Program-made: the position numbers and the translations under genes
Shown here: piece by piece, positions 1 through 25,336 of the stretch
How the letters are laid out: each line of letters begins with the position of its first letter
Numbering within the stretch: position 1 is the first letter of the stretch
The notes under the pieces: model-generated
The model's database searches: none
Told to the model about the DNA's origin: nothing
The model's input: only the letters and a program-made list of their open reading frames with translations
Origin: a virus
Lineage: Duplodnaviria > Caudoviricetes
IMG/VR virus record: IMGVR_UViG_3300035680_000084
Span: 1-25,336 of that record
Strand: one strand, 5' to 3'
DNA: 25,336 nucleotides

Positions 1-230
1 TGTGGGAGTGCTGTTGCTCTGTCTGTGAACAGGATGAGTAGGTCTTCTAAGTCCCAGTTCATTGCTTGGCAGTGTTGGGCTATTCCTACGGCTATAGCTT
101 TTCTAACATTTTTGTCTCCGAATTCTTTGGCGAATAGGAGTTGTTCGTTGATGTAGTCCCACATGCTTTGTGACGCATGGGGTTCCGGCTCATTTTTTCT
201 GTAGCTGAATGTTACGAGTCTTTTTGTCAT
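1..230 (-). CDS. Hypothetical protein, truncated at the window edge (MTKRLVTFSYRKNEPEPHASQSMWDYINEQLLFAKEFGDKNVRKAIAVG...)
   Basis: Not in the ORF track; translated by hand. The ATG at 230-228 overlaps the TGA of the upstream gene (ATGA coupling) and the frame stays open to the window edge. Confidence 0.75.
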   Translation of the reverse strand, partial: MTKRLVTFSYRKNEPEPHASQSMWDYINEQLLFAKEFGDKNVRKAIAVGIAQHCQAMNWDLEDLLILFTDRATALP

Positions 231-1033
231 TGTTCTAGTTCTTTCTGTTTGGTTTGGTGGATGATTGCGAACGCTTCTTTGGTGCGTTGGTCGTCTAGTT
301 CTCGTTTGGTGAGGAAGCGGGTGGGTTTTGTGGGGTTGGCCGACTGGGTGTCGGGTTCGTCTTCCCAGCGTTCTTGGTTGAGCCAGGTGGATGCCCATGC
401 AGTGTATTGCATGTCTTGGTCTTGTCTTTCGAGAGCATATTTTTTTGCTCCTGAGAGGATGGTTTCGGCATCCGTTTTTTTGAGTGCTTTGCTGAAAGCT
501 AGTTTGGCTTCTGCTTTTCCTTTTTTGCGTGGGTAGATAGACCAGAAGGTGTTGAAATTTTCTGTTGCCTGTATTTCTATGGTTAATTGACTCTGTTTAA
601 TATTGGCTTTGATTAGAGTGTCGTTTTCTGCACTAGGGGTAGCGTCAAATTTGCACCAGGGTGGTGTCGTTTTTTGCACTAGGGTAGTGTCGTTTTCTGC
701 ACTAGGTTGTTTGGTTATCAGATGGTAGATGTTGCTTTGATATTGCAGCAGTTCACCTTCACCTACAGTTCGATGCTCAACGTGTACTGCACCTAATTCT
801 TGAAGTTCTTTGATAGCTTTGTCAACTGATCTGATTGATACCCCAATTTTTTCGGCTATCGTTTTTCTGCTGGGAAAACATGTGCCTTTTTGGTTGGCGT
901 ATCTGTTGAGGACTGCGTATACGCAGATAGCTACGGGACTCTTTTGGGAGTAAAGAATCCACTCAGGCAAAATAGCGAAGTAGTTGTCGCTTTCTGCGGA
1001 GGAAGATTTGATATCATTACTAATGGCAATCAC
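227..1033 (-). CDS. Phage replication initiator / replisome organiser (N-terminal winged HTH, C-terminal DnaD/DnaT-like domain)
   Basis: N-terminal CFPSRKTIAEKIGVSIRSVDKAIKELQELGAV is a typical HTH_36-like motif. C-terminal FNTFWSIYPRKKGKAEA...ASTWLNQERWEDE is typical of phage initiators. Direct repeats lie in the linker. Confidence 0.85.
   Translation of the reverse strand: MIAISNDIKSSSAESDNYFAILPEWILYSQKSPVAICVYAVLNRYANQKGTCFPSRKTIAEKIGVSIRSVDKAIKELQELGAVHVEHRTVGEGELLQYQSNIYHLITKQPSAENDTTLVQKTTPPWCKFDATPSAENDTLIKANIKQSQLTIEIQATENFNTFWSIYPRKKGKAEAKLAFSKALKKTDAETILSGAKKYALERQDQDMQYTAWASTWLNQERWEDEPDTQSANPTKPTRFLTKRELDDQRTKEAFAIIHQTKQKELEQ
617..707. repeat. Four tandem 22-24 bp iteron-like repeats, probable replication origin
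   Basis: agtgtcgttttctgcactaggggt (617), agcgtcaaatttgcaccagggt (641), ggtgtcgttttttgcactagggt (663), agtgtcgttttctgcactaggt (686). An AT-rich tract is adjacent at about 555-612. Confidence 0.8.
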
Positions 1034-1090: not shown

Positions 1091-1101
1091 AGCATATCAC
1101 A
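1091..1101 (-). promoter_or_regulatory. Putative leftward extended -10 promoter
   Basis: Minus strand reads TGTG-A-TATGCT, the same pattern as the other intergenic motifs. No canonical -35. Confidence 0.55.
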
Positions 1102-1116
1102 CATTTTTGTTTTGGG

Positions 1117-1127
1117 TGCGCTATACT
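1117..1127 (+). promoter_or_regulatory. Putative rightward -10 promoter
   Basis: TGCG-C-TATACT, about 7 nt upstream of the first hairpin at 1135. Confidence 0.55.
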
Positions 1128-1134
1128 ATTTCTT

Positions 1135-1219
1135 GTCAACTTGTACTCTCTCCGAGTTGACCCCCATAGCGAACCCCTGCCCATCTCACCCCCTTTCAGT
1201 GGGCAGGGGTCTCGTTGGG
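1135..1219 (+). ncRNA. Candidate structured RNA / terminase leader: two tandem hairpins with CU-rich loops
   Basis: Hairpin 1: gtcaacttg / cgagttgac, loop tactctctc. Hairpin 2: perfect 11-bp acccctgccca / tgggcaggggt, extendable by agcga / tcgtt, loop tctcaccccctttcag. Confidence 0.5.
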
Positions 1220-1236
1220 TATATGATCGGTAGACG

Positions 1237-3231
1237 ATGACTGGTAACAAAAATAGTGGCCGCAAGTTTATTACTCCCGAAGACAAGATCAGGTTTTGGG
1301 AAGCTCGTGCCGCCGGCATAACTATCAAGGAAGCCTGCAAAATTGCGGGTATTCATTACAACACTGGTCAAGAGTGGGATAGTAAGCGTCGTAAGATGCA
1401 GGCAGAGTTGCAGGCAGCTAACCTTGAAGTCAAAGTGTCGGGGGTTAAAGCGCACCGTAACGGTGATAAAGTTGCTGAGTTGCGGGCGACGATAGATCAG
1501 ACCGCAGAGTTACCTCCCGTTATCCCGTATGCCCGATTATCGGAACGGGCGAAGCATGGATGGGATGATTTTGAGTATTTCCGTCGAGTGTATTTGGGGC
1601 GTGTGTCGTCACCGTGGCAGGTAGAAGCCGCTTTACGCATTGTGGAATATTTGGAATCTGAAGAAAAAGAATTCCTAGTCTTGAACTGTCCCCCTGGTGC
1701 AGGAAAATCTACGCTGTTCCATGACGTTGCTGTGTGGTGCATTGTTCGTAACCGGTCTATCCGTGTGCTGATCGGGTCTATTTCGCAGACGCTAGCCAAA
1801 ATGTATTCTCGTCGTATCCGTGAAACCTTAGAACGCCCCACCCGTCTGATTGCTGACCCTGAACTGGTACGCAAAGGGTTAGCGGTTGACGCTGAGGGAT
1901 GTTTGGCACACGATTACGGCAGGTTCAAACCTACCGCTAGCGGTTCATTGTGGCGAGCCGAAGAATTCATTGTTGAACAACTCAACATCGGCATGCTCGA
2001 AAACAAAGAACCGACCGTTTCGGCTTACGGTATCGACTCAGAGTTCATTGGACATCGTGCCGACCTCTGTTTGTTTGATGACGTTGCGTCTACAGAAAAC
2101 GCTAAAGAGTCCACTTCTCGTGACCGCCTACTGGAACGGTGGGATTCGATGGCTGAAGCTCGTTGCGATCCAGGCGGACTAGTCGCTGTAATCGGGCAGA
2201 GGCTCGGCCCAGGAGACTTGTACGCTCACTGCCTCAATAAAATCACATATGACGATATCGAGGATGATGATGATGCGTCGGGTGAGGATGCCACTGTCGA
2301 AGAACAGTTAAAAGACCCTGTTAAGAAACAGAAGTATCACCACATCATTTATAAGGCGTACTACGAAGAATTAGATACGGGAATCAAGTCCCGTTCTAAG
2401 AAAGCGTTACCGTGGCCGAACGGCCCGCTACTTGATCCGGTACGTCTACCGTGGAAAGACTTATCGTTTATCAAATACAACCAGCCATCCAAATTCAGGG
2501 TTGTATATCAGCAAGAAGATATCGATTTGGACTACCAGTTGGTTGAACGCACCATGCTGACTGGTGGTATGGGTGTTGACGGGGTGCAGTACCCTGGATG
2601 TTTGGACAGGGACAGGCAACCTGGGAATATTCAACGTGGGTTATCTGCTCCGTGGGTGTCAATTATCTCTGTTGACCCGTCACCTTCACAGTTCTGGGGT
2701 GTCATTTGGACAATTGTGCAACCTGACCTGGGGTTATACCATGTCGTTGACATTGAAAGAGTGAAACTAACTGCCGAAGAACTGTTGGGTTGGCAGATGG
2801 CAACGGGTGAGTACACCGGTATTCTTGAAGATTGGGTGTGTCGAGCCGACGAAATGGGTTATCCGGTGACTCACATCATTGTTGAGGTTAATGCGGCCCA
2901 GCGTTTCTTGTTGGCACACGATTTTGTGCGTCGCTGGCAGGCTTCCCGTGGGGTAAACATCATTCCTCACACGACTTCTCGCAACAAGTTGGATGAAAAC
3001 TTGGGGTTGGAAGCTTTGATTCCACCAATTGTCCGGTCGGGTTCACTACGTCTACCCACTTTGTCGGGTAACTGGAAAACTTTGGCTTTGATCGAGGAGT
3101 TATGTTCTTGGACTAAGGATAAGAAGAAGGGTACTGACCTTGCGATGTCGTTGTGGTTTACACTTCTTCATGCGCCACGGTTGTCTGCGCCTCGTCTGCC
3201 TGCACAAAGATGGAGACCTTCGTGGTTGTAG
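1237..3231 (+). CDS. terL: Terminase large subunit with N-terminal HTH extension
   Basis: Walker A CPPGAGKST, Walker B LCLFDD, coupling motif VIGQR, RNase H-like nuclease residues ISVDPS, IIVEVN and GTDLAMS. Lies upstream of the portal. Confidence 0.93.
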   Translation: MTGNKNSGRKFITPEDKIRFWEARAAGITIKEACKIAGIHYNTGQEWDSKRRKMQAELQAANLEVKVSGVKAHRNGDKVAELRATIDQTAELPPVIPYARLSERAKHGWDDFEYFRRVYLGRVSSPWQVEAALRIVEYLESEEKEFLVLNCPPGAGKSTLFHDVAVWCIVRNRSIRVLIGSISQTLAKMYSRRIRETLERPTRLIADPELVRKGLAVDAEGCLAHDYGRFKPTASGSLWRAEEFIVEQLNIGMLENKEPTVSAYGIDSEFIGHRADLCLFDDVASTENAKESTSRDRLLERWDSMAEARCDPGGLVAVIGQRLGPGDLYAHCLNKITYDDIEDDDDASGEDATVEEQLKDPVKKQKYHHIIYKAYYEELDTGIKSRSKKALPWPNGPLLDPVRLPWKDLSFIKYNQPSKFRVVYQQEDIDLDYQLVERTMLTGGMGVDGVQYPGCLDRDRQPGNIQRGLSAPWVSIISVDPSPSQFWGVIWTIVQPDLGLYHVVDIERVKLTAEELLGWQMATGEYTGILEDWVCRADEMGYPVTHIIVEVNAAQRFLLAHDFVRRWQASRGVNIIPHTTSRNKLDENLGLEALIPPIVRSGSLRLPTLSGNWKTLALIEELCSWTKDKKKGTDLAMSLWFTLLHAPRLSAPRLPAQRWRPSWL

Positions 3232-13841: not shown

Positions 13842-13888
13842 TAATCCGATGCCAATAGGCAGGAACACCTTAACGGGTTGTAAGCAGC

Positions 13889-17376: not shown

Positions 17377-18191
17377 TGGCTCGCCTATATAACGACCCAC
17401 TATTCCTCTACAACGCCAGCAACCTCACCTACAACGGTGTAGTCACATTCACCCAAACCGCCACAGGTTCAGGTACAGGCACAGAAACCGCTACATCGGC
17501 CAGCACACGAGCAAGAATCGCTACAGGTTCAGGTACGGGAACAGAAACTGCCGACTCGAACATCAACCCAGTCCGTACCGCTACAGGTTCAGGAACAGGC
17601 ACAGAGTCAGCCACTCGCATCCGTGTACCAGTACGTGCCGCTACAGGCTCAGGTGTAGGAGGATTCGACTCCACCGGACTACACATAGCACCACGAACTG
17701 CAACAGGGTCAGGTGTAGGCACATCGCTTAACAGTATCCTCCACAAGAATTTGCGTACCGCTTACGGTGCAGGAGGATCAACAACCAGCGACACCGCTGT
17801 CGGTTTACACATCGCACCTAGAAACGGAACAGGCTCAGGATTAGGAACAGAAACCGCATCCCGTATCCGTGTACCAGTCCGTACCGCCACAGGATCAGGG
17901 GCAGGAACACAAACCGCCACCTGGACTAAATCACTCATCTTCCGCACACCAGTCGAAGACAGATTCCCGTGGGACAACTACCGCAACTCCGAACCCGCAC
18001 ACCGACTATTCGCCAAAGCCAACCAGGGATATCGAGCAAGAAACATCTTCCGACTCAACACCGGTGCATACACCAACACCGATCCGTTAGACCCCACACT
18101 CGTAGACAAAGTGTATTACGGCGGTCACGACTACTATGTAGACCAAACCGAAAAAGATCAGCTAGTCGCAGCAGGGTATACTGTCACCTGA
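17376..18191 (+). CDS. Thr/Ser/Gly repeat virion protein with C-terminal YxGGH...AAGY domain
   Basis: SD GGAG and TAATG coupling give start 17376; eight repeats of about 20 aa. Confidence 0.8.
   Translation: MARLYNDPLFLYNASNLTYNGVVTFTQTATGSGTGTETATSASTRARIATGSGTGTETADSNINPVRTATGSGTGTESATRIRVPVRAATGSGVGGFDSTGLHIAPRTATGSGVGTSLNSILHKNLRTAYGAGGSTTSDTAVGLHIAPRNGTGSGLGTETASRIRVPVRTATGSGAGTQTATWTKSLIFRTPVEDRFPWDNYRNSEPAHRLFAKANQGYRARNIFRLNTGAYTNTDPLDPTLVDKVYYGGHDYYVDQTEKDQLVAAGYTVT
17449..17930 (+). repeat. Eight degenerate coding repeats of about 60 bp (RTATGSGxGTETA)
   Basis: Cores such as c(c/t)acaggttcagg recur at 17461, 17521, 17581, 17641 and 17701, with later degenerate copies. Confidence 0.85.
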
Positions 18192-24824: not shown

Positions 24825-25336
24825 ATGACAACATATCCTGTACTACCCATCATCATGCCCGCCGATCTTGCAGGTCAAAAGAACGGCGAACTCAACCCCG
24901 CTTTGCTACGAGACATCAAAGCACCCAACGGCAAACTGCATCGTCTAGCAGCTACCGCATGGAACGCCATGCAACTCGCCGCATACTTTGACGGGATCGA
25001 ATTGAAGCATGTTGGCGCATACCGCCCTATCACTGAACAGATCAAGTTGTTTAACACTCGTTATCAGGACACACCTACAGGTCGTACTCCACAAGTGACC
25101 CGCAAATATATGGGTAAGACATGGTATTTGAAGAAAGGTTTTGCACCCGCAGGTACTCCCGCCACCAGTAATCATGGGATTGGACTCGCAATCGATGTGG
25201 CCTCAGCGTCAGGGACACGTTTGGCGTGGTTGCTCGGTGACGGATTCATGACTTCTAACGCCCTAAAGTTTGGTTTCTCATGGGAAGTTGCAGACTCCAA
25301 AAACCCAAACAGCGAAGCATGGCATATCCGCTATGT
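24825..25336 (+). CDS. Endolysin, peptidase M15 (VanY/M15B-like Zn peptidase), truncated at the window edge
   Basis: Not in the ORF track because there is no stop. Manual translation MTTYPVLPIIMP...GAYRP...TSNHGIGLAIDV...SEAWHIRY contains SxHxxGxAxD and ExWH. Confidence 0.9.
   Translation, partial: MTTYPVLPIIMPADLAGQKNGELNPALLRDIKAPNGKLHRLAATAWNAMQLAAYFDGIELKHVGAYRPITEQIKLFNTRYQDTPTGRTPQVTRKYMGKTWYLKKGFAPAGTPATSNHGIGLAIDVASASGTRLAWLLGDGFMTSNALKFGFSWEVADSKNPNSEAWHIRY

Follow-up and report, generated by a model that had tools for sequence, protein, structure and literature searches.

The element at positions 1135-1219 of the plus strand is real, conserved and uncatalogued, and it is probably a phage small RNA that would repress the phage's own non-structural genes by pairing of its loops with their ribosome-binding sites (RBSs). 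The window, i.e. the whole stretch of DNA analysed, is a phage contig of 25,336 nucleotides (positions 1 to 25,336). On its plus strand the gene terL, encoding the terminase large subunit of 664 aa (1237-3231; phrog_38, E 5.4e-59), is the first gene of the structural operon and is followed by portal, major capsid and tail-fibre genes. On the minus strand the gene of the replication initiation protein, rep (227-1033; HTH_36, phrog_270), is the first of a leftward early arm, "early" being assigned by gene content and not by timing. A divergent -10 box, TATGCT at 1091-1096 (-), is the putative promoter of rep and the early arm. A VanY/D-Ala-D-Ala carboxypeptidase domain, likely that of an endolysin, was present in a truncated ORF at 24825-25334 (+).

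The IMG/VR locus L164 (loci with related terL genes are designated L and a number) is 99.98% identical to the window over 13,222 nt and reaches 8.7 kb further left. It carries two WhiB genes. WhiB genes have an established association with actinobacterial hosts, and the hosts of this uncultured phage group are on this ground likely actinobacterial. Two terL contigs in GTDB belonged to MAGs titled Clavibacter and Crocinitomicaceae; they are probably co-binned phage DNA and were not used as host evidence. No GenBank phage had a DNA match to positions 1040-1260 and every terL match to GenBank phages was below 60% identity, so that the search brought up no cultured relative. Only one IMG/VR contig contained the exact 26-mer of hairpin 2.

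The promoter in front of the element, P1, has the -10 box TATACT at 1122-1127 (+), and the predicted RNA start is at about 1134-1135. The hairpins begin 7-8 nt past this box. Hairpin 1 (1135-1161, +) folds with a 9-bp stem and the loop UACUCUCUC, a CU repeat, at 1144-1152; this loop is complementary to GA-repeat RBSs of early and recombination-block genes of the window phage. A C run between the hairpins (1161-1165, +) is weakly paired in the window. Hairpin 2 (1163-1219, +) has a long GC-rich stem, which is the likely 3' end of the RNA, and its loop at 1185-1198, CUCACCCCCUUUCA, holds a 12-mer resembling the tail of 16S rRNA as well as a 9-nt complement of an early-gene RBS. Two stable hairpins with pyrimidine-rich loops directly after TATACT had been described in an earlier note on this DNA, and folding bore this out: the plus strand of the element gave a minimum free energy of -42.7 kcal/mol (z -6.44), and none of 200 shuffled sequences folded as well. 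The reverse strand of the element also folds (-39.6 kcal/mol, z -4.46). The earlier note had overlooked P2, a -10 box TATGAT at 1222-1227 (+), which lies 9 nt before the ATG of terL and from which a near-leaderless terL mRNA is predicted. A canonical intrinsic terminator, consisting of a GC-rich stem, a short loop and a U tract, was not found on the plus strand in positions 900-1400, and read-through into terL is therefore possible. The small minus-strand ORFs within the element were not conserved.

That the RNA lies outside the described families, as had been supposed, agreed with the search of Rfam, in which neither the window nor any of 12 related loci reached the gathering score and positions 1000-1300 returned nothing at E<=10. 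Looking up sequencing runs yielded five runs with shares of 0.05-0.10, as contigs only; the sole run recorded as RNA did not reach the element, and one contig from a run that is probably DNA spans positions 1167-1463.

Conservation was assessed with five terL scans. They yielded 289 loci in which the terL start was usable, and many of these were the same contig fetched twice. According to their upstream 150 nt the loci formed 106 types, 43 near ones, with a terL identity of at least 76%, and 63 that are more distant. The layout of promoter, RNA and promoter was definable in 41 of the 43 near types despite the divergence of their sequences; left out of the RNA set were L040, with a weak and atypical element, and L105, in which the element was not found. 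In 38 of the 41 RNAs the first paired base was located 6-8 nt behind the upstream -10 box, these boxes (P1) having been picked by eye. An unselected scan for -10 boxes yielded 35 matches at offsets 4-8, compared to 0-6 per offset elsewhere. Stem pairs were counted by loop anchoring, because a MAFFT alignment of 18 elements had misplaced some stems. Six of 27 rows failed to anchor and six were duplicates, and the pairing of 120/120 in this count is by construction; hairpin 1 showed compensatory changes, with 2-6 pair types per position over the 15 distinct stems. G·U pairs were more numerous on the plus strand than on the minus strand (155 versus 58), and 34 of 40 loci leaned to plus and 4 to minus. 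The open segments consisted of 70% pyrimidine, and an exposed CCCC was present in 37 of 41 RNAs. The comparison of regions upstream of terL, which the earlier note had proposed as a check, returned a common layout, compensatory stem changes and loops that vary by phage along with the phage's own RBSs.

Several further structures were observed in the relatives. Tandem pairs of promoter-RNA units with different loops occur in L036 (2289-2496) and L037 (1521-1737). A variant RNA in L120, L182, L110, L024, L107 and L027 has a first domain consisting of a junction of three small hairpins with the middle loop CCUUUC. An inverted repeat, possibly a regulator site, lies between the leftward and rightward -10 boxes in many relatives (L120, L150, L058, L147 and L091). 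The rep leader of the window (-) contains a GC-rich hairpin (1049-1077 and 1020-1079) within a 19-aa upstream ORF overlapping the rep start; similar hairpins were found in L172, L094 and L040, and in L172 a 32-aa ORF with its own Shine-Dalgarno sequence (SD) is coupled to rep through an ATGA overlap. The early arm of a relative carries a type II hammerhead ribozyme (L030, 1978-2046, -; RF02276, 62 bits, gathering score 37).

The relation of the element to terL was then defined by the position of the terL promoter. In 35 of the 43 near types a TANNNT box ended 7-9 nt ahead of the terL ATG, and all other distances between 0 and 24 nt were empty; of the remaining eight, three had TTTACT at the same place and five had genes in between. 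As this -10 box recurs 7-9 nt before the ATG, a near-leaderless terL mRNA from its own promoter is predicted, and the statement that terL has no SD was confirmed. One or more genes were inserted between the element with its second promoter and terL in six relatives (L005, L086, L027, L017, L067 and L113), in all of which the element stayed at the divergent promoter, and in L005 (insertion 1548-2544), L086, L027 and L113 a -10 box precedes the ATG of the first inserted gene by 7-8 nt. Because these insertions before terL leave the element in place, it is not a terL-specific leader, and the combination expected of a cis-regulatory leader of terL, a fixed place directly upstream and an initiation site held within it, was not found. 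Of the two possibilities considered earlier, a small RNA or a terL leader, the plus-strand small RNA with exposed anti-RBS loops was therefore retained, and the terL-specific leader was given up in view of the separate terL promoter and the six gene insertions. Some other genes of the window had been noted to look leaderless, and -10 boxes 6-9 nt before the ATG were indeed present for the ORFs at 18191, 18492 and 19900, as well as at 13849 (all +; ORFs of 95, 89, 38 and 36 aa, respectively), which suggests that these four ORFs may be leaderless. A packaging RNA of the phi29 type was rejected, as both loops are pyrimidine-rich and cannot interlock and as the enzyme is a large terminase.

The loops were compared with the RBSs of the same phage by scoring the longest perfect complement between the open segments of the RNA and 20-nt windows before predicted starts. 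Own and other genomes were compared by a permutation test after removal of row and column effects. Gene starts came from a simple in-house caller and clades from a quick tree; an opposite-strand ORF filter removed real genes and was not used in gene calling. Loops matched the minus-arm early RBSs of their own phage better than foreign ones (n=20, p=5e-5), also with one phage per terL group (n=11, p=9e-4). Scoring by duplex energy gave a weaker effect (p=0.023 and 0.006). Random windows, stems and late RBSs gave no own-versus-foreign signal, and late RBSs were if anything avoided. Perfect matches of at least 7 nt were present at 48 of 303 early sites (16%) and at 1 of 107 late sites, while foreign RNAs gave 9.0% and 2.7%, respectively; the late set is small outside the window, which supplied 22 of its 107 sites. 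The RNAs therefore carry single-stranded seeds complementary to target RBSs beyond chance. No 7-nt match in the early arm was found for four of the 20 phages (L158, L148, L027 and L067), and in L203 and L149 the RBSs are GA repeats although a CU loop is missing. In many early genes (L164 starts 7493 and 6935; the arms of L101, L203 and L149) GA repeats replace a normal SD and match the 16S tail perfectly over only about 3 nt.

The strongest covariation was seen with the RBS of rep alone (n=39, p=5e-5), and it held within clades and without the clade of the window. It peaked at positions -20 to +8 and was absent in coding sequence, in stems and in sense orientation. Together with the divergent transcription of RNA and rep from one region, and with L172, where the matched SD precedes the 32-aa ORF coupled to rep, this would fit a dedicated brake on rep translation, serving control of replication or copy number in the manner of plasmid countertranscript RNAs, with all other matches incidental. 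When rep was removed from the early arm, the remaining signal rested largely on the clade of the window (p=0.19 without that clade, 0.07 within clades). However, the rep RBS of the window itself is hardly matched (5 nt only). The rep of the window is unlike that of the phage's nearest relatives, and phages whose terL genes are 97-100% identical have exchanged the rep module but kept the RNA (window 227-1033 versus L002, L166 and L169). Moreover, a scan of 60 proteins from these partial genomes named neither an integrase nor a partition gene. A held-out block of recombination and WhiB genes, on the other strand and several kb away, co-varied independently with the loops (n=12, p=4e-5; without the clade of the window n=9, p=7e-4). 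In this block 21 of 99 sites had a match of at least 7 nt to the own RNA, compared to 73 of 1089 with foreign RNAs. A brake for rep only is consequently regarded as quite unlikely.

The covariation of this distant block with the loops also argues against mere local duplication. According to such an explanation the element would be a terminator, an insulator or an untranslated leader between the divergent promoters and terL, and the pyrimidines of its loops would be leftovers of a duplication of RBS DNA. Hairpin 2 is long and GC-rich and its stem ended 1-4 nt ahead of P2 in all 41 RNAs, as would be expected of such a structure, and the plus-strand loop and the rep RBS form short direct repeats. 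The explanation nevertheless leaves the promoter at hairpin 1 unaccounted for, and the matches are restricted to the loops and the RBS window, including those of other-strand genes kilobases away. This explanation appears very unlikely.

The resemblance of loop 2 to the 3' end of 16S rRNA had been proposed as the central feature of the element. The match of 11 out of 12 nucleotides to the 16S tail is present, with one mismatch in the 12-mer TCACCCCCTTTC at 1186-1197, but it is weak on its own, because 15 of 100 shuffled windows contained a match of this kind. Among 13 close relatives, of which 10 could be parsed, 11/12 was reached by four, including one identical to the window, and 8-9/12 by the other six. 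Over the 41 RNAs the loops matched the tail better than shuffled loops did (mean 6.6 versus 4.9 nt), with 29 of 41 at 6 nt or more and 12 of 41 at 5 nt or less. The 11/12 match is thus not the conserved feature, and mimicry of 16S rRNA has become less likely as the trait under selection; it may also be a side effect of a small RNA with targets among the phage's own genes.

The loops could still serve as generic mimics of the 16S tail directed against host mRNAs, causing host shut-off, and the matches to phage genes would then follow since both track the SD of the host. The excess over shuffled loops and the 11/12 match in the window are in line with this, and the 6C RNA binds many host mRNAs through C-rich loops, as stated in PMC6486639. 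The 16S tail was, however, identical in all 23 exact-match loci among 30 fetched in a phylum sample, a set found with that pattern and hence biased, whereas the loops differ from phage to phage and follow the RBSs of each. Several loop-RBS pairings use bases missing from 16S rRNA, and at the same site the loop matched over 11 nt in L017, 10 in L150, 9 in L058 and 8 in L048, where the 16S tail matched over 6, 7, 6 and 4 nt, respectively. In addition, the host-like SDs of late genes are unmatched, and in 12 of the RNAs the tail itself is matched over no more than 5 nt. Host shut-off by 16S mimicry is considered unlikely.

In the window phage, the best predicted sites for the small RNA were those of early genes left of the window in L164, with -12.0, -11.3 and -9.8 kcal/mol. 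Start 6935 would form 8 bp and start 7493 7 bp with loop 1, and start 7237 would form 9 bp with loop 2. Two more GA-repeat sites were predicted in the WhiB block of L164. With an in-house score corrected for accessibility, the window RNA gave a median of -7.05 kcal/mol for 16 early starts of L164 and -1.85 kcal/mol for 26 late starts (p=9e-4). The phage SDs named as targets in the earlier note, GAAAGG and GGAG of late genes in the window, went unmatched; the sites that do match are those of rep, early and recombination genes and lie for the most part beyond the window. The sparing of late genes is not absolute, because two late GAAAGG sites (11107 and 14390) match loop 2 by 6 nt.

The 63 more distant types contained a different structure at the corresponding place. 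In this clade the plus strand carries the genes upstream of terL, and 23 of 63 types have a rod of 54-74 nt that starts 6 nt after a minus-strand -10 box overlapping the terL promoter; other offsets gave 2-10 types, apart from 16 at offset 8. G·U pairs in 25 candidate rods, of which L236 and L261 look spurious, favoured the flipped (minus) strand by 57 to 19. Matches of at least 7 nt to the rod loops were found at 28 of 272 upstream RBSs and at none of 78 downstream (late) RBSs, and own RBSs were preferred to foreign ones (p=0.02, n=18). The rod and the window RNA thus appear to share their place and an anti-RBS logic with the strand flipped; homology is not claimed, because the folds differ. 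These strand data also bear on the possibility that the functional molecule is the opposite strand, acting as an RBS-copy decoy for a repressor or for ribosomes, or that the DNA itself acts as a hairpin or packaging signal. The reverse strand does fold (z about -4.5) and the element adjoins terL. Both the G·U bias and the spacing to the -10 box, however, favour the anti-RBS strand in both clades, although its orientation relative to terL is reversed between them, and the element was unmoved where genes had been inserted before terL. A function of the other strand or of the DNA is therefore highly improbable.

The preferred reading of the element as a small RNA with own-gene targets can be compared with known systems. 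It would work like 6C, cuckoo and other small RNAs with C-rich loops but fails their defining features. 6C (B11) of the Actinomycetota, the host phylum inferred here from WhiB, is likewise about 90 nt long with tandem hairpins and C-rich loops, and its loops bind mRNAs without a chaperone, according to PMC6486639. Unlike 6C, the present element matches no Rfam model, is encoded by a phage and has loops that change with the phage's own RBSs; the longest C run in the window comprises five residues, and runs of six C are open in only 3 of 41 RNAs. The cuckoo RNA shares two to four adjacent hairpins, stems of variable sequence, as found here, and loops resembling an anti-SD, but its defining loop CCUCCUCCC occurred in none of the 41 RNAs, and the loops of the element differ from one another and between phages, whereas cuckoo is keyed to alphaproteobacteria (PMC4615179). 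OOP, PreS and VpdS are also base-pairing regulators encoded by phages; according to bioRxiv 10.1101/2024.10.31.621285, OOP acts as an antisense RNA on one mRNA only, cII-O, while PreS, which was discovered through Hfq, has mainly host targets, and VpdS is described as regulating host and phage mRNAs. The window RNA, by comparison, would act as a single RNA on the RBSs of an entire gene class of its own phage. It also differs from cis-encoded antisense RNAs of the OOP or countertranscript type in that 1135-1219 (+) lies clear of the predicted rep transcript, whose start is left of 1091. The countertranscript of the plasmid R1 CopA/tap system controls rep or a coupled leader ORF by antisense pairing, and the c4 antisense RNA of P1 and P7 pairs in trans through short loops. 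The window RNA differs from both by the lack of target overlap, by seeds of 7-11 nt and by many targets. No description of such a phage RNA was found in the literature searched. Four motifs had no match in three of the six supplementary files of PMC10690425, and the remaining supplements may hold the family as an unnamed candidate.

The following mechanism is proposed from these comparisons. P1 would transcribe a stand-alone RNA of about 85 nt with its 3' end at hairpin 2; the loops of this RNA would pair over the RBSs of non-structural mRNAs and block loading of the 30S subunit without a chaperone, as in 6C. The predicted targets are rep, the array of early small genes and the recombination/WhiB block, and the effect would be repression rather than activation. 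Structural genes would largely escape by different SDs or leaderless starts, terL by its near-leaderless mRNA. The RNA would thereby serve as a shared brake or timer that shifts ribosomes from the early genes to the late ones; P1 could be active late, or active early while the RNA builds up as a timer.

Transcription factors and polymerases are the usual explanation of when each class of phage genes is expressed. It is conceivable, if somewhat short of probable, that the early-to-late switch is made here by RNA, with co-evolving loops reading an RBS signature specific to each phage and silencing the class that bears it, and that two clades have realised this at their terminase promoter with unrelated folds encoded on opposite strands. 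If this is true, an 85-nt RNA addressing a gene class through co-evolving ribosome-binding sequences would constitute a translational class switch. It would also offer natural seed-target pairs, e.g. those of L017, L150, L117 and L058, and, for hosts that lack Hfq, a small repressor scaffold that needs no chaperone.
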